Assembly (NCBI GenBank): GCA_028694805.1
Contig: JAQVKD010000001.1
Span: forward strand, 25,549 to 89,548
Source of the DNA: Candidatus Dojkabacteria bacterium
GTDB lineage: Bacteria; Patescibacteriota; Dojkabacteria; SC72
Length of the DNA: 64,000 bases
Reading direction: 5' to 3'
Under the pieces are notes generated by a model. The model was given only the letters and a program-made list of their open reading frames with translations, ran no database searches and had not been told where the DNA came from. A program made the translations under genes and the position numbers. The stretch's first letter is position 1, and each line of letters starts with the position of its first letter. Shown here one piece after another: positions 6,110 through 63,350 of this stretch.

Positions 6110-6149
6110 GATTATTGTTTAAACCTCCTCATGTTTTTAGTTATTATAA

Positions 6150-6320
6150 TTACTGTATCATTGCTTTTATGTTCTGTAATTCATCATTTGAAAGTGGTTT
6201 CCATTTACTCAGTAAAGTGTTGGTCTCTAGATATTCCTTAGATTCTTCATCACTTGCTCTTAAAGTTTCAAATAGTGTATGAAAGAGCATATACTCAATT
6301 GATAACATCAGTAATGACAT
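6150..6320 (-). CDS. small protein with KWKPLSNDELQNIK tail (56 aa), not in ORF track
   Basis: Own translation ends ...LLSKWKPLSNDELQNIKAMIQ. No clear SD, so the start is uncertain. Confidence 0.35.
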   Translation of the reverse strand: MSLLMLSIEYMLFHTLFETLRASDEESKEYLETNTLLSKWKPLSNDELQNIKAMIQ

Positions 6321-7292: not shown

Positions 7293-7985
7293 TTATTTAG
7301 CTTTAGATATTATTTGTTTTATTTTATTAATCTCATTAATCGAAAGCGGAGTCCATTCTAAATAAGTGTTTTTATTATTTGACGATTCACCTTTAATGTT
7401 ACTCAAGTTCCTTGAATTTAAATAGAATTTTCTTATTATATTTTGTCTTTCTAATTCTTCTTGTCTCTTTAGTTCCAGTTCTTCTTGTCTCTTTAGTTCC
7501 AGTTCTTCTTGTCTCTTTAGTTCCAGTTCTTCTTGTCTCTTTAGTTCCAGTTCTTCCTGTCTTTTTATTTCCATTTCCAGATATCTTTGTCTTCTTTTAA
7601 ATCTTCTCTTTCTATAGTATTCCATTTCTGAATAATCATCATACATTGATGAATTGTATACTGATAAAGGAGCTGAACTAGAACCTCCTGTTAGAATACT
7701 TGGTAGATTTATGTCTAATTGTCGTCCTTGCGGATAGTTTGTTAAGTCTATTGTTGTAGTTCCTGTTCCTCCGTTAGCTGTTATTTGTATAGAATCACCA
7801 TCTGTATATCCACTTGGAAAATTTGCACAATCTAGTGTATATGTTGAATCTGATTCTGATGTAACTGTTATCTGTTCAGATGTTGATAGATTTGTTGCTG
7901 TTACTGTAACTCCTGCTGAGCTTGCAATATTTATAGTTCCGTATATTGGATATGGAACATATGGAAACGGCACGTTATTATCCAC
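7293..7985 (-). CDS. protein with ELELKRQE x5 tandem coiled-coil repeat and WTPLSINEINKI tail
   Basis: Perfect 24-nt tandem repeat in the DNA. C-terminus LEWTPLSINEINKIKQIISKAK. Confidence 0.55.
   Translation of the reverse strand: MDNNVPFPYVPYPIYGTINIASSAGVTVTATNLSTSEQITVTSESDSTYTLDCANFPSGYTDGDSIQITANGGTGTTTIDLTNYPQGRQLDINLPSILTGGSSSAPLSVYNSSMYDDYSEMEYYRKRRFKRRQRYLEMEIKRQEELELKRQEELELKRQEELELKRQEELELKRQEELERQNIIRKFYLNSRNLSNIKGESSNNKNTYLEWTPLSINEINKIKQIISKAK
7455..7574 (-). repeat. 24-bp tandem repeat x5 (4 perfect plus 1 degenerate), in-frame coding repeat
   Basis: Unit ttcttcttgtctctttagttccag. Confidence 0.9.
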
Positions 7986-11538: not shown

Positions 11539-11571
11539 CTTTGTTCTCAATATTCTAATTTATTAATTTCA

Positions 11572-15042: not shown

Positions 15043-18000
15043 TTAAATTGCATTTAATCTGTTTCCTATCCAATCAGTTCCATTACTGATTATTTCCAGT
15101 GTTTGCCACTGTTGTGCTGTTGTTATGGTTTGAGTATTTGCAGCGTTTATGTTCTCTCCTGCTTGTGCTGCCACTGTTACTGTTCCGGCTCCAGTATCAA
15201 CTCTTTGAATTCTATAGATTCTTCCAGTTATTCCCACTGCAGTGGGTAGTGTAATTGTAATTCCTCCAGCACCTGCTGTTGCTGCTATGTGAAAATGTGT
15301 GATATCTAGGGTTAATCCAACAGCATCTGCTGTAACAGGAAGTGCTATTGAACCATTTATATCTAATCTTGACGTTGGTGTAACTGCTTTATTAATTGTA
15401 ACACCAGGTGTATTAAAATCTCCACCTATTAATGGTGTGGTTGTATTTGAGTTCGCTATATACAGCTTATTTGAATCGGTAGTGCTTTGTGATCCTGCTG
15501 CATAGCCTAAGAATACGTTCGCAGTTCCTGTTGTAGCCGCAAGACCTGCCTGACTTCCTATAAATGTATTTTGTGTTCCAGTACTTACTAATCCTGCTTC
15601 ATAACCAAAGAATGCACTATCTGCACTTGTAGTCATTGCACCACCTGCTTGATAACCTACAAATGTATTATTTGCTCCTGTTGTATTGGCATCTCCAGAT
15701 AATGAACCTATGAAAGTATTGAAATTTGCTGTGCTTAATAATCCAGCATCTTTTCCTATGAATGTGCAATCTGTATTAGTTACATTGGCTCCACCAGAAT
15801 TATAACCTACAAATGTATTCCTAGTTCCCGTCGTGTTTGCATCACCAGATGATGATCCTATGAACGTATTTTGAGCGGCTGTATTTGCTGAACCAGCTTG
15901 TGATCCAACAAAGGTGTTGTTACTACTTGTACCAGTATTTTGTCCTGCTTGATGTCCTATGAAAGTATTATCACTTCCAGTGTCACTAAAAAATCCTGTA
16001 TTGTAACCAACGAAAGCAAGACGAGTTCCAGATGTATTGTTGAATCCTGACTGGCTTCCTACAAAAGTATTCTGATTTCCTGAATTTCCAAATCCAGAGA
16101 ATAGACCTACAAAAGTGTTATCTGCTCCTGTAAATCCAGTTGATGAACCTACGTATGTATTTTGTGATTCAGTTGTATTTGAAACACCTGAAAAATCACC
16201 TATAAATACATTTCCAGTTCCTGATGTATTTGCAGCACCTGCTTGACTCCCTACAAATGTATTACTCCTTCCAGTATCAACAGCTCCTGCTTGATAACCT
16301 ATGAACGTATTGTCACTATTCGTTGTGACTGCACTTCCAGCTTGATATCCTACAAACACATGTCTTGCACCTGTTGTATTTGCATCACCTGCCTGACTTC
16401 CTATAAAAGTATTTGAAGCAGCTGTATCAACTAATCCTGCTTGATAACCAACAAAAGTACAATCTGAGTTAGTTGTTATAGCACTCCCTGATTGATAGCC
16501 TACAAATGTATGTCTTGTTCCTGATGTGTTTGCATCACCAGATAATGATCCTATAAATGTATTTTGAGCTGAAGTGCTTAATAATCCTGCATTATAACCT
16601 ACAAATGTACTGTTACTATTTGTTGTATTTGTAAATCCTGAAGAAACGCCTACGAATGTATTTTGAGTCCCTAATGTATTATTAAATCCTGATGCTTGAC
16701 CTACAAATGTGTTACTCGCTCCTGTTGATGTGTTCTGACCAGACTGGCTACCTAAGAATGTGTTATTTGATACCGTATTAAAAAATCCAGTAAATGTTCC
16801 TATAAATGTACATCCACTACCAGTAGAATTAGTAAATCCTGAGAGTTCTCCTACAAATGTATTTGATGATCCAGATGTATTAGTAGAACCTGCTCTATCG
16901 CCTAAGAAGGTGTTGTTACTAGCTATGTTATTAAGTCCTGATTGATAACCCAGGAAAGTATTGTTATTTGTTGTTGAATTTGCTCTACCTGATTGATAAC
17001 CTATGAATACATTATTTACTCCTGATGTATTCAGTTCTCCAGATTCATTTCCTATGAAAATGCTCTGACTTGATGTATTGAGTCTTCCTGATTCCCATCC
17101 AATAATAACATTAGATGCTCCACTATTCCCAGCAAGAGCACCTAAAATAGTGTTTTGACTGTGTGTAGTAATTCCTATTCCCGTAGTAAATCCTACAAGA
17201 GTATTTTCTCCGCCACTTGTGATATTTGAACCTGATTCAGCTCCTACTATAGTATTAAATCCATTTGGACCACTTAGAATTCCTGCATCCCATCCTACTA
17301 TTGTATCAAATTCAGAAGTTATTCCTATAAGTCTATTTGCTTCATCTAATTTAAATGCAATATCACTTCTCCATATATGACCATCTGATGTTCCAAATAA
17401 TACCACTCCGTTTGATGCATTTACCATTGATCTTATAGATGAAGGTGCTATAGCACCAAGGTCAGCCCATGTTACACTAAAATCTGTTGTTCTAATAATA
17501 TGTCCGTCACTTATTCCTAGTGTAGCTATTCCGTTTCCAAGATAAGCACTGGCTGTACAGAAATTACCTGCACCATAAACATTGCCTAAGTCTGTCCATG
17601 TACTTCCATTATCAGTGCTTCTAAATATATGTCCGTTTGCATCACAGGCTATTGTTGCTTGGTTTCTCATGTAAAGAATTGAATCAATAGATGCTCCTGA
17701 TATAGGATTTCCAGCAACTCCTGAGAATGTAGCTCCATCATCCGTACTTCTAAATATATTTCCTCCACTATCTCCAATTAGAACTACACCATTATCTAAG
17801 TATGCTGAAGAACTTAATATATTGGCTGAAAGAGGACTCCCTGCTATTTCAACCCACGTAACACCATAATCAGTACTTCTTGCAACTCTTCCAGCGCCAT
17901 CTCCTATTATAGATATTCCATTTCCAATGTAAACAGACGTGAATATATCAGTAAATCCTGCTAGAGGTGTTCCAACTACTGAAGTCCACGAAAAACCAAA

Positions 18001-18348
18001 GTCTAGACTTCTATATACTGTTCCCCCTACAGTTCCTATTATAGCAATTCCGCTTCCTAAATAGCTCATTGCTAATCCGCTATTTCCTATAGCGCTTGTA
18101 CTATTATACCAATTATTAAGACCGTAATCCGAGCTTCTGGTTATAGATGTTGATAAACCACATGCAACAACGATTCCTGCTCCACAATAAATTAATTTTC
18201 TATTAGCATAACCATTGATAAATGTATCAGTCCATACTACTCCAACATCGAATGGGAATTGATACGCTGGTCTATCTATACCAGCACTGCTAAAACTTGG
18301 AGGTGCTCCCCCACCTCCTGGTCTTTTATTTGGTACTATTTCTACCAT
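15043..18348 (-). CDS. fibre-like protein: N-terminal BNR/Asp-box propeller plus about 50 tail-fibre-like 14-aa repeats
   Basis: BNR motifs RSTDYGVTW, RSTDDGATF, RSTDNGSTW, RTTDFSVTW. Then NTF[VI]GxQ[AS]GxxNT[ST]G repeats, as in phage tail-fibre and trimeric beta-helix proteins. No signal peptide. Confidence 0.65.
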   Translation of the reverse strand: MVEIVPNKRPGGGGAPPSFSSAGIDRPAYQFPFDVGVVWTDTFINGYANRKLIYCGAGIVVACGLSTSITRSSDYGLNNWYNSTSAIGNSGLAMSYLGSGIAIIGTVGGTVYRSLDFGFSWTSVVGTPLAGFTDIFTSVYIGNGISIIGDGAGRVARSTDYGVTWVEIAGSPLSANILSSSAYLDNGVVLIGDSGGNIFRSTDDGATFSGVAGNPISGASIDSILYMRNQATIACDANGHIFRSTDNGSTWTDLGNVYGAGNFCTASAYLGNGIATLGISDGHIIRTTDFSVTWADLGAIAPSSIRSMVNASNGVVLFGTSDGHIWRSDIAFKLDEANRLIGITSEFDTIVGWDAGILSGPNGFNTIVGAESGSNITSGGENTLVGFTTGIGITTHSQNTILGALAGNSGASNVIIGWESGRLNTSSQSIFIGNESGELNTSGVNNVFIGYQSGRANSTTNNNTFLGYQSGLNNIASNNTFLGDRAGSTNTSGSSNTFVGELSGFTNSTGSGCTFIGTFTGFFNTVSNNTFLGSQSGQNTSTGASNTFVGQASGFNNTLGTQNTFVGVSSGFTNTTNSNSTFVGYNAGLLSTSAQNTFIGSLSGDANTSGTRHTFVGYQSGSAITTNSDCTFVGYQAGLVDTAASNTFIGSQAGDANTTGARHVFVGYQAGSAVTTNSDNTFIGYQAGAVDTGRSNTFVGSQAGAANTSGTGNVFIGDFSGVSNTTESQNTYVGSSTGFTGADNTFVGLFSGFGNSGNQNTFVGSQSGFNNTSGTRLAFVGYNTGFFSDTGSDNTFIGHQAGQNTGTSSNNTFVGSQAGSANTAAQNTFIGSSSGDANTTGTRNTFVGYNSGGANVTNTDCTFIGKDAGLLSTANFNTFIGSLSGDANTTGANNTFVGYQAGGAMTTSADSAFFGYEAGLVSTGTQNTFIGSQAGLAATTGTANVFLGYAAGSQSTTDSNKLYIANSNTTTPLIGGDFNTPGVTINKAVTPTSRLDINGSIALPVTADAVGLTLDITHFHIAATAGAGGITITLPTAVGITGRIYRIQRVDTGAGTVTVAAQAGENINAANTQTITTAQQWQTLEIISNGTDWIGNRLNAI

Positions 18349-33737: not shown

Positions 33738-33791
33738 GTTTTAATTTCCTCCTATTAGTATCATTTATTAATGCTTCTATTCAATATGTTG

Positions 33792-33938
33792 TCTATCTTC
33801 CTCTTTTTCTCCTCTCTTCTTTCTTCGTAGTTGCTCGCCTTTGTGATGGCGTCATTTTTCTATACCACACAGAACCACACACTGCACCAGGATCTCGAAC
33901 TTTTCCCTTTTTTTTAACCTGGTTAATGCAACTTCTCA
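33792..33938 (-). CDS. small basic protein (48 aa from the internal ATG; possibly longer), not in ORF track
   Basis: MRSCINQVKKKGKVRDPGAVCGSVWYRKMTPSQRRATTKKEERRKRGR. An upstream SD-preceded ATG at 33964-33966 is out of frame by 1 nt in a C4 run. Confidence 0.35.
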
Positions 33939-33985
33939 TCCATCTTTTAGGTGGACGCTTGGGCATAAATTCCTCTCTGTAAAAC

Positions 33986-34174
33986 TTAAATTACAAAGTA
34001 TTTCATCAATTCATATGTACTTGGTGAAGGGCATGTTGCTTGGAATGATGCCATTTTAGTATTAAATGCTGCTGTATCAGCACACATTTTACTTCCTGCT
34101 CTCATTGATGCAAGGTACATTCCTCCGACTACTGCCGCTGCTGCTATAATAGCTGTTGTTTTCGTATCAGGCAT
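33986..34174 (-). CDS. small TM protein
   Basis: AIIAAAAVVGGMYLA helix. Confidence 0.35.
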   Translation of the reverse strand: MPDTKTTAIIAAAAVVGGMYLASMRAGSKMCADTAAFNTKMASFQATCPSPSTYELMKYFVI

Positions 34175-34256
34175 ATTTTATTTCCTCCTATATTTTATTA
34201 CTTGTTATTTAAATTATTCTTTAATGTAACTAATGTTATATGATTTTAATTATTTA

Positions 34257-39110: not shown

Positions 39111-39221
39111 TTACTTGCACGCACGAACTGCTTTCTTGAAAGCAGTTTTGCCGCCTCTTTTTCCTTTCAAGTGACGTGCCATGCAAGATTGAAATTTAGT
39201 TCTTCTTCGATGTCTTGCCAT
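39111..39221 (-). CDS. tiny Arg/Lys-rich protein P1 (36 aa), not in ORF track
   Basis: GGAGAT SD. MARHRRRTKFQSCMARHLKGKRGGKTAFKKAVRACK. Confidence 0.45.
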   Translation of the reverse strand: MARHRRRTKFQSCMARHLKGKRGGKTAFKKAVRACK

Positions 39222-39224
39222 CAA

Positions 39225-39326
39225 TTATCTCCTTCTAGATGAAAAGTCAGCACATCTTTTTCCGGCTCTTGTCCTTTTCATCCTAATACATCTTGAGCCT
39301 TTCTTCATTCCCTTCTTTCTTGCCAT
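39225..39326 (-). CDS. tiny Arg/Lys-rich protein P2 (33 aa), not in ORF track
   Basis: AAGGAT SD. MARKKGMKKGSRCIRMKRTRAGKRCADFSSRRR. Confidence 0.45.
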   Translation of the reverse strand: MARKKGMKKGSRCIRMKRTRAGKRCADFSSRRR

Positions 39327-39343
39327 CTTCGATCCTTAATTTT

Positions 39344-39415
39344 TTAGTATTTCTTTCTGCGCTTTCTGCACTTATCTTTTCCTTTTACTTTTCCGTATTT
39401 ACATCCTTTTGCCAT
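39344..39415 (-). CDS. tiny Lys-rich protein P3 (23 aa), not in ORF track
   Basis: GGAGGT SD. MAKGCKYGKVKGKDKCRKRRKKY. Confidence 0.35.
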   Translation of the reverse strand: MAKGCKYGKVKGKDKCRKRRKKY

Positions 39416-39417
39416 TG

Positions 39418-39516
39418 TTACCTCCTCTTTCTTCTTCCACCAACGAAATCAGCACACCGTCTTCCGACACCACGTACACGCTTATATCTAACACACTCTG
39501 CACCTTTCTTTGCCAT
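39418..39516 (-). CDS. tiny Arg/Lys-rich protein P4 (32 aa), not in ORF track
   Basis: GGAGGA SD 6 nt upstream. MAKKGAECVRYKRVRGVGRRCADFVGGRRKRR shares the RRCADF motif with P2. Confidence 0.45.
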   Translation of the reverse strand: MAKKGAECVRYKRVRGVGRRCADFVGGRRKRR

Positions 39517-39615
39517 ATCATTCCTCCTACATTGTTTATATTTGATTTATTTAAATCAATATTATTTATCTTTCAGAAAGGTCGTTTTTATCAATATAGT
39601 ATCACTGGAGAATTG

Positions 39616-49037: not shown

Positions 49038-50453
49038 CTAGTGTTTACCATTCTCTATCTGTAACTTCACACTTTTTTCTTTTAGTTTGACATTGATAAA
49101 AACTTTTTCTTGTTTTCCAGAAGAACCTCTTTTAACCAGTTCCACATTCTGATATTTTGTCATTAAACGAGTAAATTTAGCCTTTGTGAACGATTTATCC
49201 CCATTATTACTAATATACAAATCATATAACTTGTCTCTTGATATAACATTATCTTGACCTACCTGAAGATCAAAGATTTTTTCTTTAAAAATGTCTAATT
49301 CGTTTTCTTTTTCACTACTACTGTAATCATCCCATCTTTCTTTTGTCATATCATGATCATATGAAAACTTTCCTTTTGTCAGAAGTCTTTTTAACCCTAT
49401 AACTGCAAAATTTAAGAATCCTTCCATCTCTTCTTCTGTTGTTAATATGTTCATTATATCATGTGAATCACTTGAAAAATCAGTGGAAAAATTAAGTAAT
49501 ATTACCTTTTTCCACCATGCATCCGTATCATCACTAATTATAGGAAGACTATTGCATGAAAACATCAATTTAGCTTTATTTACAAATTGAAATTGCCTTT
49601 CGTGTTTTCTCTGAGCAGTGATATAGTCAAAACCTAAAAGTCTTTTAACTTCACCTGTTAAGTCAATCTTTTCAGAAGTTATGTCACTACATATATTAGC
49701 TTTCTTTCCATATAACATTGAACACTCGAATCTATCTTTTGACAATGATTGTAAACTTGACGATGATACATTATCAGAGCCACCAAGCATTTTTGTTATC
49801 AAACTAAATACTTTACTTTTTCTATTATGTCCACCTTCACCATGTATTATAACAAATTTATCATATTTATATTCAGGATATAGTGTATATCCTATGTATT
49901 CTTGAAGACATAAAAAGTCTTCATCATTTTCAACTGCTTCTCTTATGAATTTTTTAATCTCAGGACAGTTTGCACATTCGTTATAATTTATGTTAATCTT
50001 ATATAAAAAATTATAATCTGGATTATGAGGTTCCAATTTTAAGGTGTTTATGTCAAGAACTCCATTTTTAAGGTTTATTTTGTTGTTTGGTTCTATAAAG
50101 AACTTTCTCGGTAGAGTCTGAGGCTTTACCTTATCGAGAATAGATTTCCATATAACTCCGTTATAATGCTTTCCAAATATTTTGTCACACATTGATCTTA
50201 TATATTTATCTCCGTTTTCATGATAGTATCCATCAAAATATACAAACATTTCATCATTGTCCATCATGGTTTTAGAGTAGAATTTTGTTCTTATATGTAT
50301 GACAATATTATCAATCAAATTTTTAATGAATTCATTTCTATTTTTACTATCTAAATTGCTTATTTCTTCTTCGTAGCTTTTTATATTTTCCAAGAATATG
50401 CTTATATTATTAGATTCCATCAAAATCAGATATCCTCCATAACAATATGTCAC
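49038..50453 (-). CDS. D5/P4-family primase-helicase-like protein (SF3 helicase C-terminal domain)
   Basis: FVIIHGEGGHNRKS (degenerate Walker A), ICSDI (Walker B), LKRLLGFDYITAQRKHERQFQFVNKAKLMFSCNSLP (motif C Asn), DTDAWWKKVILLNFS. Confidence 0.6.
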   Translation of the reverse strand: MTYCYGGYLILMESNNISIFLENIKSYEEEISNLDSKNRNEFIKNLIDNIVIHIRTKFYSKTMMDNDEMFVYFDGYYHENGDKYIRSMCDKIFGKHYNGVIWKSILDKVKPQTLPRKFFIEPNNKINLKNGVLDINTLKLEPHNPDYNFLYKININYNECANCPEIKKFIREAVENDEDFLCLQEYIGYTLYPEYKYDKFVIIHGEGGHNRKSKVFSLITKMLGGSDNVSSSSLQSLSKDRFECSMLYGKKANICSDITSEKIDLTGEVKRLLGFDYITAQRKHERQFQFVNKAKLMFSCNSLPIISDDTDAWWKKVILLNFSTDFSSDSHDIMNILTTEEEMEGFLNFAVIGLKRLLTKGKFSYDHDMTKERWDDYSSSEKENELDIFKEKIFDLQVGQDNVISRDKLYDLYISNNGDKSFTKAKFTRLMTKYQNVELVKRGSSGKQEKVFINVKLKEKSVKLQIENGKH

Positions 50454-50467
50454 CTCCTTTTTCTATC

Positions 50468-51286
50468 TTAAAAATCAGTAATTAAAGTTTGATTTTCCAT
50501 AATTTTTGACATTTCCACTACTTCTATATATTCTGGGCATTCAATCCAATTATGATTCCAACAAATTATCATATCACATTTATCGATAGGATGTTCATGT
50601 ATCAAAAAATCATAAGATGTTCTTTCTATTTCTATATTAACTTTTGATGTTATATTGTTTCTTTTCCTTAGTGCCACTATATCTGGAAACTTATGAGGAT
50701 TTATTTCTGTAATAGATACTAAGCCAAGATTTTGAGAAATTTCACTCCACATTACTCCAATTATAAATAACATTTCCATTTCATAAAGATTGTCGGTAAT
50801 TTTCATTTTTTTATTTGTGATATATTCTTCTATGAATGCTCTTACATTATAGCTTCTGTTTTTTGTGTCTTTGAAAATATTTTCCATTATTCTATATACC
50901 ACGCTATTGTTTTTGTATATAAGCGAGTTGAAATATTCTTCTATTTTGTTGTTTACTTCATATCTATCAAGATAAATGTCTTTCTTCTTTGTAGAATTCA
51001 TTTTCAGTACTTTTAAAAGTATTTTTAAGTCATTTATAAAATCAGTGTCATCTCTCTCAGATTTGAGATTAAATAATGATACTTTCATTATTTCATATGC
51101 ACATCTTCCACATATTCTAAGACAATCCTCATCAGAGAATATTTTAGGATTTGATTTGTTATTATATACCCTCTTTTTAAGTTTATCTGAATAAACATCC
51201 CAAATATCTACGTTATAATCACTTCTATTACCACATAAATCACATTTGTCGTGAGATGAATGATATAATCCGTACATTTTAATCAC
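50468..51286 (-). CDS. Zn-ribbon plus possible PD-(D/E)xK nuclease-fold protein
   Basis: CDLCG...CGRCA near the N-terminus. C-terminal PDIVAL...NIEIER could be a D...ExK-type motif. Confidence 0.3.
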   Translation of the reverse strand: MIKMYGLYHSSHDKCDLCGNRSDYNVDIWDVYSDKLKKRVYNNKSNPKIFSDEDCLRICGRCAYEIMKVSLFNLKSERDDTDFINDLKILLKVLKMNSTKKKDIYLDRYEVNNKIEEYFNSLIYKNNSVVYRIMENIFKDTKNRSYNVRAFIEEYITNKKMKITDNLYEMEMLFIIGVMWSEISQNLGLVSITEINPHKFPDIVALRKRNNITSKVNIEIERTSYDFLIHEHPIDKCDMIICWNHNWIECPEYIEVVEMSKIMENQTLITDF

Positions 51287-51307
51287 TCTTTTAGCACTCT
51301 CTTGAAT

Positions 51308-51511
51308 CTATTCCACCTTTATTTTGTCTATCCCTTCCATTATAGCCATGTTAGCTATTTCTTGCATAGGTTTTCTGATACCTCTAAGAAGAAATTCAGC
51401 TTGTTTTCTCATAATGAGATTATGAGCATCATCGCTAACTATCACATGCTTATCTAACTTCTTATTATCATTATTTCCATTATTATTTACATTATCAATA
51501 TTATTTAACAT
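51308..51511 (-). CDS. small hypothetical protein (possible DNA-binding)
   Basis: 67 aa, N-terminal Asn-rich tail, then a helical region. Confidence 0.3.
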   Translation of the reverse strand: MLNNIDNVNNNGNNDNKKLDKHVIVSDDAHNLIMRKQAEFLLRGIRKPMQEIANMAIMEGIDKIKVE

Positions 51512-52123
51512 AGGTCACCTCCACTAATTTAATTTGATTAAAGCTTAAATACTCTTAAAACTATTTAAGGCTTGCGTTATTTTCATGTTCATTATATATA
51601 TATAATAGAGGTGGATAATAACAACGAGGTTTCTTGTTTTCCGGCGGGTTAGCGGTTAGAGTCAAATTAATAGCTCCATAGGCTTTGGATATAGGATGCA
51701 CTTAGTTTTGAAGACAGATTCTGACAACGTTTAGCCTATTTTTGAGTAACCCGTTACAAAGGCTTTAATAAAATATACTTTATATATTATTTAAATAAGT
51801 AAGATAGAACTCTATTCACTTGAGGAACCTGTTCTCACCTGTTATTCTCTTTGGAATACCATTTTCATTTATCATTTGATTACATAGAAATGTTCCAGTA
51901 CTTAGATATATTTTTCTAGTGTACATCTTTCTATACGGACTCATGCCAAAATATCGTGTTGAATATGTCATTTTTTCACTCTCTCTTTTATTCTCTTTTT
52001 TTCACACACTTTACTTCTTTATATTGGCAGATGAAATAGTTGGACGAGTGGGGATTCAAAAAAGAAACCATTTCATCTTTTGCCATAAAAAAATAAAGAA
52101 TTGAATGCAATATATTTATGATA

Positions 52124-52495
52124 CTATTCCTTTTTTTCTTTGATTGTTTTCTTCACATCTTTTACGAATTCTTTTACACAGGAATCTAACAATCCAAATT
52201 TAGATGTATCTGATGTTGAAAACACAACTACTGATTCCTGAGACGAAGCAAGGTCTAGACCACATATTATAAATTTGCTGACATTAGAATATGCAAAATA
52301 TACATCAATTCCTCGAATTATAGCTTTAGCAACATGTCTTTCTAATATATCCGGACTGATCTCTCGATGTTCGGATGAAGATAGATGTATCACATATTCA
52401 CGATCATCTATCTTTACAAATTCATCGTTTTCGTCCATTTCTATCATTTCTGTGTTCTTTGTATCATTTATAAACAGACTTCTTGTTATCTTCAT
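52124..52495 (-). CDS. hypothetical protein
   Basis: 123 aa. Confidence 0.4.
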   Translation of the reverse strand: MKITRSLFINDTKNTEMIEMDENDEFVKIDDREYVIHLSSSEHREISPDILERHVAKAIIRGIDVYFAYSNVSKFIICGLDLASSQESVVVFSTSDTSKFGLLDSCVKEFVKDVKKTIKEKKE

Positions 52496-52549
52496 TGTTG
52501 ATCACCTCACATTGAATTTTTCTGCGACGACTTGATGATATTTTCCCTT

Positions 52550-52951
52550 TTATTTTGCTTTTATATCTAATAGCCATTTGTTCATTAAATCACATGTTCC
52601 AGGATCACAATCCATAACACACCCAGTGCACGGTGAAAATCTTCCACTATCTGAAAGCAGTGCATAGAATTTTGTTTGATTGACAAATTTACTGTTGTTA
52701 ATGTCACACTTTTCAACCATATATGTTCCCCCTTTGACTTTTCTTCTTTTTATAAGTCCGTTGTCTTCAAGGACTTTCATTAATTCAGAACAGTATCTTC
52801 TTTTGATTCCTAGTTCTTTCCAAATATTACTCTGAAGAGCAGGTAGCATTATTAATAGCTTTTCTTCTAAATCAGCTTTAATTCTTTTTCTGTCAGCTTT
52901 CGAAACGTTGCATGCTCCTTTCTTCGGTTTTGGAATCCTTGTTTTTTTCAT
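52550..52951 (-). CDS. winged-helix transcription regulator with C-terminal Cys cluster
   Basis: NIWKELGIKRRYCSELMKVLEDNGLIKRRKVKGGTYMVE is a winged-helix HTH. CTGCVMDCDPGTCD. Confidence 0.5.
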   Translation of the reverse strand: MKKTRIPKPKKGACNVSKADRKRIKADLEEKLLIMLPALQSNIWKELGIKRRYCSELMKVLEDNGLIKRRKVKGGTYMVEKCDINNSKFVNQTKFYALLSDSGRFSPCTGCVMDCDPGTCDLMNKWLLDIKAK

Positions 52952-53115
52952 TATTTTTATTTTCTCCTTATTTTTTTATTTTATATTTTTCATTTTTTAT
53001 TGTAATGTTTGCATTTACTACTTTTAGTTATTTCGCTTATATTGTTACAGTTTACGCATTTATATTTACACATAAAATTCTCCTTCAAAAATATAGAATG
53101 GAGTTTAGAACTCCA

Positions 53116-54915
53116 TCATTTTTGAGAATCTATTCTCTTCAGCTCATCACACATCTGAGTACATGCTGTTTTCAAATCTACCCCGTCAAACGGAGTTACA
53201 GCCGCAACCACTCCAATGCTTCCTATTGATACTACACGATACTTTTTATTACTTGGTGGAGATTGAGTTACAGTTATCGTGAATATATTACTTGTGATTG
53301 ATTTGTCTAGGTTCGAGCATGTAATATTCGCAGTTCCCACGCCATTTCCAGTAACTACTCCATTAGTAACCGATGCTATGTTAGTATTATCACTGTTCCA
53401 TGCTAATGAAGGACATTTCATCACAACATCATTTGTGTTTTTACATGTAGGTGTAAGGGTAATCGTATTTCCAATCACTACTGATCCCTCACTTGGAATT
53501 GATATTGACTTCAGGACTGGTGGTAGTGGAGCTGCTGTTACTGTTACAGAACATATATTACTTGTGATTATATTACTTGAGTTCGAACATGTTATATTAG
53601 CAATTCCTTCAGTATTCCCAGTGACAACACCATTTAAAACCGATGCTATACTTGTATTATCACTTTTCCATGTCAATGAAGGACAATTCATTATACTATT
53701 ATTGCTATCTTTACATGTTGCTGTTAAGTTAACAGTTAATCCTGCTTGAACATTTGCACTGGAAGGTATTGTTATTGATGATAACACTGGAGCTGGATTA
53801 TCTCCAACTGCGTTTACTGCATCTATTCTTCCATATCCATAGAAAACATCTCTTCCTGTCTGTCCAAGATCTATTGAAGTAGTACTTAATATTGTCTTTA
53901 CATCGTTAGGACTTAGTGTTGGATTGGCTTTTAGCATCAAAGCAACCATTCCTGACACATGAGGTGTTGCCATTGATGTTCCATTTAGAGTATTATATCC
54001 TGACGGATTACATAATGGACACGTTCCCTTTGGAACAGTTGACAAAACATTGGAACCTGGAGCAGCTACCCACAACTCTTGACCTGTACTTGAAAACGAA
54101 CTTCTATTATCGTTTACATCTGTAGATGCAACTGCTATTACACTGTCATATTTGGCTGGATATCCGATAGTATTCTGAGTTCCGTTTCCATCAGAATTTC
54201 CTGCTGCAGCTACTAATACTATTCCCGCATTCTTAGCAGCATCACATATATCTTTAAGAGCTTGACTGTAAGTTCCACCACCAAAGCTCATGCTTATGAT
54301 TTGAGCGTTGTTATCTATAGCCCACTGTATTCCTGCTACAATCCAGTCATAACTTCCTGAACCATTATTATCAAGAACTTTTCCTATTATTAAATCTGCT
54401 TCAGGAGCTACACCAATAACTCCCACAGAATTGTCTTCTGCTGCTATAGTTCCCGCAACATGTGTTCCATGCCCATATCCATCGAATGGATTGTTTGATC
54501 CATCTACAAAATTACGTCCAAATTTGTAATTGTTTTTCAAGTCTTCATGGTTGTAATCTATTCCAGTGTCTAGAATACACACCTTTATTCCAGATCCTTT
54601 ATTTCCATTTTCCTGGACTTGGAGTGCTCGAATCTTACTTATTCCCCACGGAATCGTCTGAGATGATGGAGATACTGAAAGAGTCATGTCACTTTCAAAC
54701 CCCAACACATGAACATCATCTGGTGTTGTGACCTCTACATATTCCATTTGAGAATTTTTCTTTAATTGCTCGATTTTATTTTTATCTACTACGATGGTCA
54801 ATGCATCAATAGATTCATGCACCATCACAATAGATGCACCTACATCACCAACTATGTTTTCACATACAGCCATTCCACTTTTACATTTTACAATTGCTTT
54901 TACTGTTTCTGCCAT
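53116..54915 (-). CDS. subtilisin-like serine protease (S8) with two C-terminal Big_2-like domains
   Basis: Catalytic triad contexts VCILDTGID, HGTHVAGTIAA, GTSMATPHVSG. Two 80-aa repeats IxIPSxxxVxxGxTxxLTxTCKxxNxxxMxCPSLxW. Confidence 0.85.
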   Translation of the reverse strand: MAETVKAIVKCKSGMAVCENIVGDVGASIVMVHESIDALTIVVDKNKIEQLKKNSQMEYVEVTTPDDVHVLGFESDMTLSVSPSSQTIPWGISKIRALQVQENGNKGSGIKVCILDTGIDYNHEDLKNNYKFGRNFVDGSNNPFDGYGHGTHVAGTIAAEDNSVGVIGVAPEADLIIGKVLDNNGSGSYDWIVAGIQWAIDNNAQIISMSFGGGTYSQALKDICDAAKNAGIVLVAAAGNSDGNGTQNTIGYPAKYDSVIAVASTDVNDNRSSFSSTGQELWVAAPGSNVLSTVPKGTCPLCNPSGYNTLNGTSMATPHVSGMVALMLKANPTLSPNDVKTILSTTSIDLGQTGRDVFYGYGRIDAVNAVGDNPAPVLSSITIPSSANVQAGLTVNLTATCKDSNNSIMNCPSLTWKSDNTSIASVLNGVVTGNTEGIANITCSNSSNIITSNICSVTVTAAPLPPVLKSISIPSEGSVVIGNTITLTPTCKNTNDVVMKCPSLAWNSDNTNIASVTNGVVTGNGVGTANITCSNLDKSITSNIFTITVTQSPPSNKKYRVVSIGSIGVVAAVTPFDGVDLKTACTQMCDELKRIDSQK

Positions 54916-54933
54916 TTAATTTCCTCCTTCTAT

Positions 54934-55193
54934 TTAATTAGACCTTGATGAACTTCCGCCCTTTCTTCCTATTCTTTGATAGAATTCTCTTCCATACCTT
55001 ATTTTAGTTACTTCACCACCTTTATGTCCATTAATAGACAGCTTTTCATGTAGTTCATCAGAAATTCCATACTTTCGAAGATTCTTAGCACGTGTATTTC
55101 CTCCTTTTTTTCCTATCTCTCTAAAGAATTCACTATCGTGCGTATCTCTTGTTTTTTCTCCGCCTTTTTTCCTGCTTCTTGTACTGTTATCAT
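54934..55193 (-). pseudogene. GsiB/KGG-repeat stress-protein homolog interrupted by a -1 frameshift at an A6 run (A_AAA_AAG)
   Basis: 0-frame gives MITVQEAGKKAEKKQEIRTIVNSLER*. The -1 frame continues KKGGEKTRDTHDSEFFREIGKKGGNTRAKN...GHKGGEVT...GRKGGSSSRSN, which is the HDxEF..EIGxKGG repeat of GsiB. Confidence 0.55.
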
Positions 55194-55228
55194 TTCTTTT
55201 AGGTTCCTCCTTTGGTTAATTTATCGAT

Positions 55229-55765
55229 TCATTTTTCATCATTTAATTTGAAAATTTTGTCAAGTCTTCTGTTAAGATCTTCTTTACCTTTCAATTCATC
55301 ATAAGTTTCGTTCTTTTTCGTTGAATCAATCGTAATCGATGGTTTCTTAATATCTATCTCTGTTTTATCTCTTTTGTATTTTATTTCGAAATTGCTTATT
55401 AAATCAGTAACTTCTTCTTTTGTTACATATTTATTATCAATATCACCGATTACTTCTTCGTAAATAGCTTTTATGACAGAATTGTTATTTGACTTGACCA
55501 TCATGTTTAGTCTTTGCTCTGTTTTTTGTTCTAAGTCTTTTATAATTTCACTTTTTATTCTGTCAATATATTCATTTGCCATTTCTTCAATTTTCTTACT
55601 AATAATTTCATCAATTTCAGACTTATTTTTTGTTCTATGTTTCCAACCTAATATAATTTGATTAACTAAATCACTTTTTGTTGTTCCTGTGTAATTTGCC
55701 TCCATTTCTAATATTCTATTTGTTTCATCATCTGTTCTAAACCTAATTACACTTTCTTTTGTCAT
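55229..55765 (-). CDS. RHH-like DNA-binding protein with charged helical C-terminal region
   Basis: VIRFRTDDETNRILEMEANYTGTTKSDLVNQIIL has RHH topology. Confidence 0.4.
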   Translation of the reverse strand: MTKESVIRFRTDDETNRILEMEANYTGTTKSDLVNQIILGWKHRTKNKSEIDEIISKKIEEMANEYIDRIKSEIIKDLEQKTEQRLNMMVKSNNNSVIKAIYEEVIGDIDNKYVTKEEVTDLISNFEIKYKRDKTEIDIKKPSITIDSTKKNETYDELKGKEDLNRRLDKIFKLNDEK

Positions 55766-55799
55766 TTTAATTTCCTATTTTTATAACTTTGTAAAAATC

Positions 55800-55890
55800 T
55801 TTTAGACCACGAAAGGCTACAAACGTGGTTTATCAGACCACAAACGTAGACAATCGTCTACGTTCTTTTTTAAATTTTTTAGACTTTATT
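55800..55890. promoter_or_regulatory. palindromes and direct repeats (ACAAACGTGG / ACAAACGTAG; acgtagac-aat-gtctacgt) upstream of the RHH gene
   Basis: accacgaaaggctacaaacgtggt hairpin, direct repeat cacaaacgt x2, and an 8-bp perfect IR followed by a plus-strand T-run. Confidence 0.35.
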
Positions 55891-56026
55891 TTTTCTATAT
55901 TGTAATGTCATCTGCGCTATTTTCCATCCCAAATAACTTCCTATTCCTGCTGAGATAGAAATCCACAACAGGAATAAGATATATGAAACTTGTTCATTCA
56001 TACTTTCTTCTTTAGTAATACTGTAT

Positions 56027-56548
56027 TTATATTATGCTTATATTTGAACTGGCGAATGCTGTTGCACTTGAGTTTCCACTAGTTGATACACTCGAAGAAT
56101 TCATTCTTTCTATTGTTTTATTTTGGTTGAAGTAATAGTTTGTAGTTGTATTCGTATCGTTGTTTGATTGAACTGATTTTGCATAGCATAATGATGCATT
56201 TACACTGCTTTCCATAACCAAGCCTTGAATAATCAACTGCTTTCCAGATACTGTTATCTTTTCACCTGGAACACACCAACCAGGACTTGCAGGAATTAAT
56301 GCTTCTGAACTTTTATTGTTCTCTGTGGATGTAGACAGATTAGAGCTAGTATTGGATTTATATGTAGCGTTTTGACTTATTTTAGTTACTGGAAGTGAAT
56401 CATTCACTAATTCTTTTGTTGTCACAGTCGATACTGGAGTACTTGTAATAACAAGACTATTATTCTTCGCATTATTATCTACACATCCTGACAAGAGTAA
56501 TAATCCTGCTACCAACAGTGCCGTGGCTATTATGGTTTTATTTTTCAT
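56027..56548 (-). CDS. secreted Ser/Thr-rich lipoprotein-like protein
   Basis: Signal peptide with lipobox-like LLLSGC. AAGGAGG SD. Confidence 0.6.
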   Translation of the reverse strand: MKNKTIIATALLVAGLLLLSGCVDNNAKNNSLVITSTPVSTVTTKELVNDSLPVTKISQNATYKSNTSSNLSTSTENNKSSEALIPASPGWCVPGEKITVSGKQLIIQGLVMESSVNASLCYAKSVQSNNDTNTTTNYYFNQNKTIERMNSSSVSTSGNSSATAFASSNISII

Positions 56549-56563
56549 GTTTTTAATTCCTCC

Positions 56564-56812
56564 TTATTTAAATTTTAATTTATATTGAAGCTTTAATCTT
56601 CTATTTTCAATTTTTGTTGTTATTAATAATGCAGCTATTAAGTTTATTGGACCAAATAATGCAAAAAATATACTGTCTCTCATGTCCTGTTTGTAGTGTT
56701 CTTCTGCAAGCCTTGGATATTTATATTGAAAGTATCCAAAGTACATTCCATGAGATAGTATCCCTGATGCTATCCATATTATTGCTATTACAATCAAGAT
56801 TAGAGTGTTCAC
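56564..56812 (-). CDS. small membrane protein
   Basis: Two TM helices. Confidence 0.45.
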   Translation of the reverse strand: MNTLILIVIAIIWIASGILSHGMYFGYFQYKYPRLAEEHYKQDMRDSIFFALFGPINLIAALLITTKIENRRLKLQYKLKFK

Positions 56813-56831
56813 TTTATCTCCTCCCTATTTG

Positions 56832-57317
56832 TTATTCTTCTTGTTTCCTCATTATTCTCTTTACCGTTTTTATCAATAGGAAAATTACAAATGCAATGAT
56901 TATTATTACCGTACCAAGACCGACCATTTGAATTGTTGATATGTCTCTTTGAATAGATGTTGAACTTTTGTCTTCAGCATACCACGTATATAATATAGTC
57001 CTTCCGTCAAGAGTTGCTATTGCCAGAACTTTGGATTCGGGATATCGATTTCCATTGCTATCTAATGGTCTTATTATAGTGAAAGTGATTTTTGAATTGT
57101 TTATTACTCCATCAAAGTATATTCTTCCCTGGTCTAATGTTAGGTTATTATTACTGTCAACTGTATAATATTGTTCTGTATATATTAAACGACCAGTTTG
57201 TCCTTTAGTATCGAGATATATATCTTTTTGTTGTGGCTCTATTGCTGTTACCATTATTGGAATCAACAGTAACACTGTCATTGCTGTTAATATATTGATC
57301 CTCGTCCTATTAATCAT
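56832..57317 (-). CDS. membrane protein with N- and C-terminal TM segments
   Basis: N-terminal signal or anchor, C-terminal TM plus a basic tail KTVKRIMRKQEE. Confidence 0.5.
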   Translation of the reverse strand: MINRTRINILTAMTVLLLIPIMVTAIEPQQKDIYLDTKGQTGRLIYTEQYYTVDSNNNLTLDQGRIYFDGVINNSKITFTIIRPLDSNGNRYPESKVLAIATLDGRTILYTWYAEDKSSTSIQRDISTIQMVGLGTVIIIIAFVIFLLIKTVKRIMRKQEE

Positions 57318-57475
57318 TTTTCAATCACTCCTTTATTTTCCTATTATTTATGCTTTAAAATGTATTTATCAAGTAAATAATAACCTACTGCTGTTAAAAG
57401 AATGACAATAATCCCAACAAAATACGGAAATGCTGAACTTTCTGTTATTGATGCCATTGTTTAATTTCTCCTTAT

Positions 57476-58147
57476 CTATAGATGAAGGAAATCCAATACC
57501 ATCTGTATTAATGATGGTGATTTACTTGATTCATCTAAAGATATTCCATAATCCATATCTGAACTGTTTGATGCTGAGATAGTTTCATTAATTTTTTGTA
57601 TATTTATTGATTCATTTACATTGACTAATACACTGCTAATGTTAGAGAAATTACTGAAATTGAGAGATTGTATTGATGTTCCGTTGACATCCATATTTTC
57701 ATTGTATGTTTGAGGTGTTCCATGAACGACTATTGTCTGAATTCCAGAAGGTAATTTATTTAGCTCGTTTAACGTAGAAGTAAAGAAATTATTGGTGTTG
57801 ATATTTTGTGTGTTAGTCGACGATGTTGTAACACCGTTCACTGTAGTTGTTTTAACTACATTGCCTGGTGATTGTGAAACTGCATTTGAATTTGATATTA
57901 TTGTTTCACCTTTTTTAGCATTGCTTGAGCTTTCTGATATTGCTACTCCGCCTTTAGTAGAGTCAGCATTTGAATTTGAAATTGCCACACCATCACCAGT
58001 AGCCCGTGAGCTAGAAATTGCTATTGATGTTCCTCCGTTTGAAGAAGATGCTGTAGAACTTGAACTCGAACTTGCTGCTATTGCTACTGATATTGTTACT
58101 AACATCACAACAGCTATAGATGTTAAATACATTTTTATTTTATTCAT
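57476..58147 (-). CDS. secreted Ser-rich protein
   Basis: Start MNKIKMYLTSIAVVMLV (signal peptide) with GGAGGA SD. The track start at 58189 looks like an extension. Confidence 0.55.
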   Translation of the reverse strand: MNKIKMYLTSIAVVMLVTISVAIAASSSSSSTASSSNGGTSIAISSSRATGDGVAISNSNADSTKGGVAISESSSNAKKGETIISNSNAVSQSPGNVVKTTTVNGVTTSSTNTQNINTNNFFTSTLNELNKLPSGIQTIVVHGTPQTYNENMDVNGTSIQSLNFSNFSNISSVLVNVNESINIQKINETISASNSSDMDYGISLDESSKSPSLIQMVLDFLHL

Positions 58148-58178
58148 TTTATGTTCCTCCCTTATTATGTTGTCTTGT

Positions 58179-59795
58179 TCAATATTCAATAATTTCTAGT
58201 TTTTTTCTCAACCTTTTTATTACCTTTCTTATCGCAATTGATACCACTATTATAGGAATCAATACAGCAATAAATCCAATTATTTGAAGATTTTTATTAT
58301 TAGGAATTCCACTATTTGGAACAGATTGAAGTACTGCTGTCGTATTATTTCCTATATTAGCTATTGAATTATTTACATCATTCGTAATTGTTGCATCTGT
58401 ATTATTCATTGATTGAACATTATCTTTCAGTCCACTTATTGCGTATACAGATGGTGTTGGCGACGATGCTTGATAATATGTATATATTCCATCAGTATTT
58501 ATAATCTTAGTATTTAACTTCCACCAATTTCCAGTATACTTCAATAATTTAACATCTTCTTTATTTAAATTATTTTCTTTAATCCAGGTATTCAACACCT
58601 TAAATTTTATTGTAATGTAGCTAATTCTCTTACTATTTATCCATATATTTTCATTAGAGTAAATTATTCCTGCAGGAATCTTATCAGCCGTGAGTGAAAG
58701 TCCTTTCAAATGTTCCAACCTTACAGTAACATCATTATCACTTAAATTCCCAATAACATCTATCTCATATATAGAGAAATTAGGTAATTCAAATAAATAT
58801 GCTACCGATTTTCCTGCAAGCATATCATTACTCTTAGTTATAAACTTCTCTATGTTATAATATGACTCAGGACTTGTTGTTCCTCCGCCACCGCCTCCGC
58901 CACCACTACTTGAACCGCTACTGCCACTAGAACCGCTACTTCCTCCACCAGACGAAGAAGATGGTTTTTTATTTACACTCCATATAATTGTCCACGTCTT
59001 CGAATCACAACCACTTTTAGCAACTGCAGTAACATTCCATTGTCCTTGTGTTGGATTTGTAATTGTGTATGTACTTACTACAGTTATACCAGATTCATTA
59101 AATACTTCTGCGCTATTTATATACCACTTAACGTACCACGATTTATTGGTATCTGATAAGTTCCCTGTTCCAAAAGTTGTTTTATCTCCAACATAACTTG
59201 AAAATGTTTGGGATGGATATGTAGTATTTTCACATAATGGTGTTGTAGGAGTTTGTGTAGGAGTTGGTGTTGCATTGTCAGGTATTGGAGTTGAATTATC
59301 AGGTATTGGAGTTGAATTATCAGGTATTGGAGTTGAATTATCAGGTATCGGTGTAGGATCGTCAGGTATTGGAATAACATCAGATGATGTAACTGGAATT
59401 ATAATCATTGCATTACTATATCCATTTTTGCTTGCTGTTGCAATTACAGCTCCTAATGATGTTGCATTTACTGGAATTGTAACTTGTCCACTTTCATCAG
59501 TTATTCCATTTCCTAAAGCCGAACCACTGAGAGATACTGTTACATCCTTTGCAGGTAACATTGGTGATGGATATACAGCTGCACATGCTTCATCTGGCTC
59601 AGAACCACATGGACGAGTAACTGTAAATGTAACATCTTTCTCAATACCTGTTGTTAAGAATTGAGTATCTGATGTAATTGTCAGATTTTCATTTGCTGCA
59701 TATGCTATTGGTATCAACAAAATTATGAGTGTCATTACTCCAAATACAGCAATTAAAGAAATCTTATCTATTGTCATTTTTCTTACTACTTTCAT
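58179..59795 (-). CDS. secreted protein: Ig-like/CarboxypepD_reg-like N-terminal domain, (IPDNSTP)x5 repeat, G/S linker, C-terminal TM anchor
   Basis: Signal peptide. 21-bp tandem repeat. GGGGSSGSSGSSG linker. C-terminal TM plus RKVIKRLRKK. Confidence 0.6.
   Translation of the reverse strand: MKVVRKMTIDKISLIAVFGVMTLIILLIPIAYAANENLTITSDTQFLTTGIEKDVTFTVTRPCGSEPDEACAAVYPSPMLPAKDVTVSLSGSALGNGITDESGQVTIPVNATSLGAVIATASKNGYSNAMIIIPVTSSDVIPIPDDPTPIPDNSTPIPDNSTPIPDNSTPIPDNATPTPTQTPTTPLCENTTYPSQTFSSYVGDKTTFGTGNLSDTNKSWYVKWYINSAEVFNESGITVVSTYTITNPTQGQWNVTAVAKSGCDSKTWTIIWSVNKKPSSSSGGGSSGSSGSSGSSSGGGGGGGGTTSPESYYNIEKFITKSNDMLAGKSVAYLFELPNFSIYEIDVIGNLSDNDVTVRLEHLKGLSLTADKIPAGIIYSNENIWINSKRISYITIKFKVLNTWIKENNLNKEDVKLLKYTGNWWKLNTKIINTDGIYTYYQASSPTPSVYAISGLKDNVQSMNNTDATITNDVNNSIANIGNNTTAVLQSVPNSGIPNNKNLQIIGFIAVLIPIIVVSIAIRKVIKRLRKKLEIIEY
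59277..59381 (-). repeat. 21-bp tandem repeat of about 5 copies (coding, IPDNSTP)
   Basis: Unit tcaggtattggagttgaattat. Confidence 0.85.
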
Positions 59796-59995
59796 TTTAA
59801 TCACTCCATTTTATTAGATAAGTTCATTACAAACTTATTTTGATGGAACGGAAGCTTGGTTAAGGGTACGTGTATGGAGACCAACTTGGCGTTCTTTCAT
59901 CATAGTATTGTAATTGTAACTAGATAAAAATAAAAAAATGAAATGCATATATCTGTATAGATACACGCACTTCAGATCGGGATTTAGTTGTTGTT

Positions 59996-62232: not shown

Positions 62233-62802
62233 TTATTGTGATGTTTGATGTCTTTTTTTCTGTTGTTCGTATATATTATTAGCCTCATTTTCAGGATTAA
62301 AAGCATCAATGAATTCGTCTGTATTTAAATTTGGTCTTTTGCATAGCAAATCGCTACACATTATTTCCATCAAACTCATTTTTATGTCATACTTCTCGTA
62401 TAATATGTTTGATGTCACTTTAAGCTTTTTATGAACCTTGTCAGGAATTTCCATTACATGTTGTCCACTTCCAGGAAATAAATCACGCTTATTAATTTTA
62501 GGTTTTATATCCTTTATGAGAATCTTTTCAAGCAACCTTGCATCAAAATCATTTTCTGTTAAGTATATACAAATAAACTTAATCTGATACTTATCGTCAA
62601 AGTTTTTGTGATGATGATATAATCTACTTCTGATTGATTTTGCTGAACCAACATACTTTTCTTCGGAAGAAAATGTTATTACATATGCACCACAGCTAAT
62701 AGGTGTTAAATATATGTCTTCTGGTGATATATTATCTATTACAGATTTAATGTTAATATCACAATTAATATGTGTTTTTAGTTCATTGCTTTCCATAATC
62801 AC
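62233..62802 (-). CDS. GIY-YIG nuclease-domain protein
   Basis: GAYVITFSSEEKYVGSAKSIRSRLYHHH is a GIY...YIG...R...H core. Confidence 0.65.
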   Translation of the reverse strand: MIMESNELKTHINCDINIKSVIDNISPEDIYLTPISCGAYVITFSSEEKYVGSAKSIRSRLYHHHKNFDDKYQIKFICIYLTENDFDARLLEKILIKDIKPKINKRDLFPGSGQHVMEIPDKVHKKLKVTSNILYEKYDIKMSLMEIMCSDLLCKRPNLNTDEFIDAFNPENEANNIYEQQKKRHQTSQ

Positions 62803-63350
62803 TCACTCAAAACTAACTCCTTTTTTTTATCTTTCTCCTCTTTTTCTGCTTTTATAGAATCACTTAACCACTCTGTTATATTTTCTTGTTCTTTAGCTTT
62901 TTCGATAAAAATCTTTACTATGTTACCAATAGTAACACGTATATCATATTCTGAATATAATGATGCCTGTATTTTCTTAATTTCATCATATAAATCCTTC
63001 GATATTTTTACAACTTCACTTTCTTGTACAGGAAACAAATCACGCTTATTAACTTCAGGTTTTATGTCTTTTATAAGAATCTTCTCAAGTATTCTTGAAT
63101 CAAACACATCTTCTACTAAGTATACACGAATTAATTTAATTTGATACTCTCCATTGAAACTTTCACGATGATAATTCAATCTAGTTCTTAAAGTCTTTGT
63201 TGAACCGACATATTTCCTACCACATAAAAATGTTATTATATATACACCACATTCATCAGGCAACATATCTATATCTTCTAGTGGTATGTTATCTATCACC
63301 GATGTAACACTAATATCGTAATTAATATGTGTTTTTGATTCGTTATTCAT
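62799..63350 (-). CDS. GIY-YIG nuclease-domain protein (tandem paralog)
   Basis: GVYIITFLCGRKYVGSTKTLRTRLNYHRE. 4-nt overlap with the downstream paralog. Confidence 0.65.
   Translation of the reverse strand: MNNESKTHINYDISVTSVIDNIPLEDIDMLPDECGVYIITFLCGRKYVGSTKTLRTRLNYHRESFNGEYQIKLIRVYLVEDVFDSRILEKILIKDIKPEVNKRDLFPVQESEVVKISKDLYDEIKKIQASLYSEYDIRVTIGNIVKIFIEKAKEQENITEWLSDSIKAEKEEKDKKKELVLSE

Follow-up and report, generated by a model that had tools for sequence, protein, structure and literature searches.

Probable loss of one A, rather than programmed slippage, at an A_AAA_AAG heptamer in a KGG-repeat gene

In the programmed −1 frameshift of dnaX, the classic slippery heptamer A_AAA_AAG is combined with an upstream Shine-Dalgarno (SD) element and a downstream stem-loop. 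The same heptamer is present in 68 E. coli genes, and A AAA AAG shows measurable spontaneous slippage in E. coli, while spontaneous in vivo frameshifting during canonical translation amounts to only 10^-4 to 10^-5 (PMC9307594). A different kind of frame disruption is represented by homopolymer frameshift pseudogenes and leaky frameshifted genes, in which a single base is lost from a poly(A) tract of an otherwise intact ORF and the downstream frame stays open; slippage rescues the leaky genes to a small extent. As to the protein family concerned here, the KGG general stress proteins (PF10685), such as GsiB of B. subtilis and YciG of E. coli, share the N-terminus MxVxEAGxKGGEKT and repeated xEF(F/Y)xxIGxKGG units.

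The gene described in the following resembles each of these systems in part. It lies in a 64-kb stretch of DNA, referred to as the window, from a 128,474-bp contig of a metagenome-assembled genome (MAG). Its heptamer is identical to that of dnaX and stands in the right phase, but it is accompanied neither by an SD-like element at stimulatory distance nor by a nearby stem-loop, it is located 9 codons from the start so that the 0-frame product would be a 26-aa stub, and the two-frame layout is absent from orthologs. As in homopolymer frameshift pseudogenes and leaky frameshifted genes, a single base appears to have been lost from a poly(A) run in front of an open frame, and the gene is likewise accessory and absent from relatives. 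In contrast to these genes, however, the tract is short (A6), so that any rescue would be ribosomal and inefficient. The N-terminus and repeat units agree with those of the KGG stress proteins, whereas the gene is frameshifted, resides on a virus-like element instead of in a chromosomal stress regulon, and encodes a ~28-residue insert (NxxAxNLxxxGISxELHxxL...) common only to P0001, P0002 and the ortholog L007 (see below).

Layout of the gene and family membership of its product

The ATG of the gene, at 55193-55191 on the minus strand, opens the codon series ATG ATA ACA GTA CAA GAA GCA GGA AAA AAG GCG GAG of a 26-aa ORF (MITVQEAGKKAEKKQEIRTIVNSLER) with a TAG stop at 55115-55113 (Table 1). GGAGG motifs similar to the one in front of this ATG also precede neighbouring genes in the window. 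The heptamer sits in X_XXY_YYZ phase relative to the 0 frame, and joining the frames between GGA-AAA-AAG and the following G affords an 86-aa product, MITVQEAGKKGGEKTRDTHDSEFFREIGKKGGNTRAKNLRKYGISDELHEKLSINGHKGGEVTKIRYGREFYQRIGRKGGSSSRSN. It had been proposed in a first-pass annotation that the 0 frame ends after 26 aa, that a −1 shift (equivalent to one extra A) is needed for full length, and that the break lies in the A-run at A_AAA_AAG; reading of the sequence confirms all three statements, with the A6 at 55170-55165 and the heptamer at 55170-55164.

Table 1. Features of the interrupted KGG gene and its direct neighbours, in window coordinates.
Feature	Position	Strand	Remarks
SD-like GGAGG	55206..55210	minus	12 nt 5' of the ATG; direct reading
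0-frame ORF, 26 aa, MITVQEAGKK followed by AEKKQEIRTIVNSLER, TAG end	55113..55193	minus	KGG homology in the first 10 codons only; homologs start M-x-V-x-EAG[RK]KGG
A_AAA_AAG heptamer, A6 (55165-55170) plus G	55164..55170	minus	1 nt short compared with ortholog L007
−1 frame continuation, 76 codons plus TAA (54936-54934), GGEKTRDTHDSEFFREIGKKGG...IGRKGGSSSRSN	54934..55164	minus	KGG motifs 1 (its GG) to 4
A7 run in the second repeat, GGA AAA AAA GGA GGA (G-K-K-G-G), in frame	55105..55111	minus	models the first motif with A7
Upstream neighbour, 178-aa ORFan (MDD3474371.1, PHP08_00525)	55229..55765	minus	no homolog except itself
Downstream neighbour, S8 subtilase with Big_2 domains (MDD3474370.1)	53116..54915	minus	SD and start 19 nt after the KGG stop

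Conventional translation cannot produce the full protein: in the 0 frame a stop is reached after 26 codons, and the −1 frame lacks a start codon. An alternative start in the latter was considered and rejected, since its 93 open codons contain no ATG, GTG or TTG; direct reading from the upstream stop to the first KGG motif revealed no ATT, ATA, ATC or CTG either. Both the ATG and the SD are present in the 0 frame only. No other start-less open frame in the minus-strand intergenic gaps of the 64-kb window exceeds 46 codons, which makes these 93 codons the longest, and the frameshift is hence a single, real feature of the assembled sequence. The flanking proteins MDD3474371.1 and MDD3474370.1 bear consecutive accessions, i. 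e. no protein was annotated between them by the depositor. A promoter scan stayed at background (9 found vs 7.8 expected).

The restored 86-aa product matches Pfam KGG with 35.7 bits (gathering score 20.4, E = 1e-08), which bears out the GsiB/KGG-type identity assigned from the letters alone; a match to an NCBIfam model was not found. More than 500 homologs were retrieved at E <= 1e-3, and YciG, GsiB and KGG domain protein are common names among them. In an alignment of nine sampled sequences, the homologs carry the N-terminus M-x-V-x-E-A-G-[RK]-K-G-G-E-K-T in a single frame, and 16 columns are invariant, including all four GG pairs. The restored protein has four KGG motifs (AGKKGG, IGKKGG, NGHKGG and IGRKGG). 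Of the four HDxEF..EIGxKGG repeats claimed initially, the four motifs therefore stand, while the full form, (H/Y)(D/G)xEF(F/Y)xxIGxKGG, is present in two units only. In the window gene, MITVQEAGKK is encoded in the ATG frame and GGEKT... in the −1 frame, which confines the lesion to GGAAAAAAGGCGG.

The N-terminal module MTVQEAGxxGGEKT is conserved across domains even at the codon level. Among genome contigs, the A-run pattern matched only two Bathyarchaeia MAGs, and these were dismissed as unrelated in-frame KGG genes (MTVQEAGRLGGEKT) with shared conserved codons. The two genes (L003, 6786-6817, and L004, 354-385) have a 32-nt pattern in common with the window gene (CAAGAAGCAGG...GGCGGAGAAAAAAC) at a much higher GC content.

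Related KGG genes and the origin of the missing A

The closest KGG homolog, P0004, is encoded on ENA ERZ926239 k127_29555 (L007, GC 47%), identified by tblastx as a syntenic but diverged relative of the element in the window. Homologs of the 541-aa (58179-59804), 161-aa (56832-57317) and 173-aa (56027-56548) proteins are encoded 5' of its KGG gene and show ~43-48% identity; L007 provides the only syntenic KGG ortholog found. When the two KGG genes are aligned as DNA, one internal gap appears, of 1 nt and located in the A-run of the window (GGAA-AAAAGG vs GGAAGAAAAGG), and the junction in L007 reads G-R-K-G-G in one frame. The ortholog pair shares 67% aa identity and thus exceeds its neighbours. 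Differences between the restored frame and L007 are distributed 17/13/33 over codon positions 1/2/3 and are synonymous-only in 24 codons, and this third-position bias indicates that the −1 frame evolved as coding sequence. Beyond this pair, V.EAGxxGG lies in one frame in 70/70 other KGG genes from the fetched loci, and a true frame change is found in the window only. L070 had emerged as a second frameshifted KGG gene, but proved to be a regex false positive in which the motif was matched in the wrong frame. The comparison with related genomes suggested by the first-pass annotation hence speaks against a conserved two-frame layout, as L007 and all 70 other genes are single-frame.

Wider searches yielded distant relatives. 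From JGI metagenomes, 80 loci were returned whose identity over the greater part of the protein is 36-46%, all of them ordinary in-frame KGG genes, and JGI matches above this range were short C-terminal fragments only. In IMG/VR, the KGG protein found distant matches only (42-60%), while the exact DNA pattern, the 178-aa neighbour and the S8 peptidase found none. No match was obtained in GenBank phages, neither by blastn of 54000-57000 nor by tblastn of the restored protein.

Altogether, the two-frame arrangement probably results from the non-programmed loss of 1 nt, which shortened A7 to A6 at codons 9-10 in an accessory gene for a small hydrophilic KGG-repeat (GsiB/YciG-like) protein. An ancestral GGA AAA AAA GGC GGA, encoding G-K-K-G-G with an A7 as in the second repeat, would have lost one A to become GGA AAA AAG GCG, whereupon translation from the SD-preceded ATG would end after 26 codons. 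The N-terminus MxxVxEAG in the 0 frame and GGEKT in the −1 frame match one continuous family frame, in support of such a deletion. Most likely, the KGG gene is a recent pseudogene, or else a disabled allele prevailing in this population. The full-length KGG protein would then be absent, or would arise only in the rare event that tRNA-Lys slips by −1 on A_AAA_AAG without any programming, as may be extrapolated from the work on E. coli. The first-pass annotation had listed a pseudogene or a homopolymer error as alternatives to slippage, and the single-base gap in the A-run relative to L007 together with the single-frame relatives points in this direction. Two observations nevertheless fit less comfortably with deletion and decay, namely the fully open 76-codon −1 frame and the concentration of the differences from L007 at third positions. 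An open and constrained −1 frame implies that the lesion is very recent or that the −1 frame is still translated.

The same observations could be explained if A7, and with it an intact 86-aa gene, were present in the true genome or in a substantial sub-population, the A6 of the assembly then reflecting population mixture or an artefact of consensus or sequencing. This is unlikely, although 1-nt changes in homopolymers are the most frequent indels of sequencing and assembly, the sequence comes from a MAG, and the −1 frame is free of any defect and under purifying selection. The Logan assembly contig SRR22315504_47293 (27.5 kb), produced by a different assembler, is 100% identical to window positions 50116-58765 (8.6 kb) including the A6, and passes through this site unbroken. 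Logan and MAG assemblies most likely share the same reads; their agreement is therefore not independent biological evidence, yet it identifies the A6 as the consensus of the reads rather than a slip of one assembler. A literature search for SRR22315504 gave no match. The base-perfect 27-kb k-mer contig would imply accurate reads (short or HiFi), for which an A6/A7 error should be rare. In addition, the 93-codon frame stands alone among the gaps, which argues against a generally indel-prone assembly. A real deletion is thus the likelier explanation.

A second 1-nt disruption had been reported for a C4 run in a small basic ORF near 33964. This claim did not hold: the ORF at 33793..33966 is an intact, uninterrupted 57-aa basic ORF (MPKRPPKRWMRSC...) with its own ATG and an upstream GAGAGGA, the sequence at its start reads ATGCCCAAG (C3), and neither CCCC nor GGGG occurs anywhere in 33780-34200.

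Significance of the slippery heptamer

Programmed −1 frameshifting of the dnaX type at codons 9-10 would deliver the 86-aa KGG protein and the 26-aa peptide in a fixed proportion, and it was this mechanism that the heptamer had originally brought to mind. Its attraction lies in the X_XXY_YYZ phase, in the family-conserved G-K-K-G-G junction that a slip generates, and in the measurable slippage of A AAA AAG in E. coli (PMC9307594). The open −1 frame with its codon-level constraint and the restriction of ATG and SD to the 0 frame would also be in keeping with it. However, removal of one A from GGA AAA AAA GGC GGA gives GGA AAA AAG GCG and with it an in-phase A_AAA_AAG, so that both the phase of the heptamer and the junction restored by a −1 slip are simple arithmetic consequences of losing one A.

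The heptamer is moreover frequent in intact genes of the window. The coding strand is A-rich (38.5% A), and AAAAAAG strings occur 32 times in the genes of the window, with nine in a frameshift-competent phase inside intact ORFs. An xxA codon precedes 9/17 AAA-AAG dicodons, i. e. the heptamer is neither avoided nor special. For AAA-AAA lysine dicodons in the minus-strand genes, an xxA codon precedes only 7/39, compared with ~50-65% for AAA-AAG, AAG-AAA and AAG-AAG; this suggests that the coding sequence avoids runs of at least 7 A, but not A6G.

Stimulatory elements could not be located either. Neither GGAGG nor AGGAG nor GGGAG occurs in the 17 nt that precede the heptamer (ACAGTACAAGAAGCAGG), and hence an SD-like element is missing 6-17 nt 5' of it; the SD of the KGG gene itself lies 35 nt 5' of the heptamer. 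On the other side, no stem-loop or pseudoknot was predicted 5-9 nt 3' of the heptamer, as the first 24 nt downstream are unpaired and the only predicted downstream helix begins 24 nt past it. The 81 nt downstream fold with an MFE of −9.4 kcal/mol (z = −1.97), equally well as 10/200 shuffles, while the KGG gene as a whole folds no better than shuffles (z = −0.30). No Rfam family was detected in the window. A tRNA search of the window was also negative, and the tRNA-Lys set of the host is not among the window genes. Given in addition that the 0-frame tail has no recognisable function and that L007 and 70 other family members are single-frame, programmed frameshifting appears very unlikely, and the dnaX-type slippage of the first-pass annotation is accordingly unsupported.

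Ranking just behind it with a similarly slim chance, the A-run may act as a switch, in that slippage of RNA polymerase or of replication (phase variation) toggles the gene. Accessory genes of viruses and mobile elements are sometimes phase-variable, the break falls in a homopolymer, and the depletion of A_AAA_AAA in the window, set against about half for the other Lys-Lys dicodons, hints at instability or a cost of runs of seven A and more. Efficient transcriptional slippage and phase variation, though, involve tracts of about 8-9 nt or more, which neither A6 nor A7 reaches, and the tract has the same length in both assemblies with no heterogeneity visible.

The surrounding element and the fate of the KGG gene

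All gene-like ORFs of at least 90 aa in the 64-kb window are located on the minus strand. They encode, among others, a D5-type (D5_N/DUF5906) primase-helicase, a glycosyltransferase, a protease, a 239-aa packaging-ATPase-like protein (phrog_2666), and two large proteins (1190 and 1101 aa) of beta-helix or tail-spike-like type (coordinates of example genes: 49038-50453, 929-1648, 7978-11550 and 15043-18348). No match to the element was found in GenBank phages, and none at close range in IMG/VR. Judged from this gene content, the window seems to belong to a virus-like or mobile element that is so far uncharacterised. Binning alone assigns it to Dojkabacteria, and a PGF-pre-PGF protein of Methanomethylovorans is distantly homologous to the 541-aa neighbour. 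The host may therefore be a CPR bacterium or an archaeon.

Several further features of the element are worth recording. Near-identical N-termini (e. g. MALSKEVMGFYPNWL... and MVLSKEVIGFLPNWL...) are found in paralog pairs, tandem or dispersed, at 21003-22094/22143-23540, 23563-24549/24649-25119, 35017-35556/35560-36105 and 33105-33737/38012-39055, and indicate repeated gene duplication within the element. Two adjacent, overlapping paralogous genes for GIY-YIG nucleases (62233-62802 and 62799-63350, minus strand) correspond to a single copy in the related contig L091, with 54-58% identity. At 39111-39546 on the minus strand, three consecutive tiny and very basic ORFs (~32-36 aa) with an xxCxRxKRxxxGxRCADF-like pattern (e. 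g. MAKKGAECVRYKRVRGVGRRCADFVGGRRKRR and MARKKGMKKGSRCIRMKRTRAGKRCADFSSRRR) may represent tandem paralogs of a nucleic-acid-binding peptide.

Four further relatives of the element (L090-L093) were reached through the 541-aa neighbour, and no KGG gene was found in the compared stretch of any of them. In L090 (~6 kb downstream) and L092 (including the S8 peptidase), the KGG gene is absent over kilobases past the 541-aa homolog, while L091 and L093 end 0.2-0.5 kb past this homolog and are uninformative on KGG absence. The KGG copy of L007 contains two in-frame TAA codons at the equivalents of E50 and L52. Reassignment of TAA in L007 was rejected, as TAA serves as the stop of 5/8 of its genes. These codons lie at 6148-6156, three codons apart (ELH*K*SESGRKGG), and 34 further conserved codons follow. 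A Logan contig from the same run as L007 (ERR1527249_25721, L008) ends one base before the first TAA; this end suggests a graph branch or a variant at the TAA site.

Across relatives, the KGG gene is consequently absent, nonsense-mutated or frameshifted, which characterizes it as accessory, dispensable and decaying in this lineage. As far as the compared contigs tell, this pattern fits the loss of a dispensable gene and not a conserved recoding device. Pure decay, on the other hand, does not obviously predict that both known ortholog copies are interrupted and yet better conserved than their neighbours. This, together with the third-position-biased divergence, would be explained if the gene were kept deliberately interrupted, by A_AAA_AAG here and by two TAA in L007, so that rare recoding supplies a very low dose of the protein; this is the least probable of the readings considered, but if such an interruption were maintained in two diverged elements, an uncultured virus-like element would be seen to throttle expression by means of recoding.

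Taken together, what breaks this accessory gene is most probably a plain homopolymer indel and no new recoding signal, and the broken KGG gene itself carries little biological weight. Of more general relevance is the way in which the heptamer arises: in A-rich genomes, any one-base loss in an in-frame xxA-AAA-AAA-G (Lys-Lys) yields a perfectly phased A_AAA_AAG. For recoding scans, this calls for caution, as a frameshift that falls exactly on a classic slippery site has no weight by itself.
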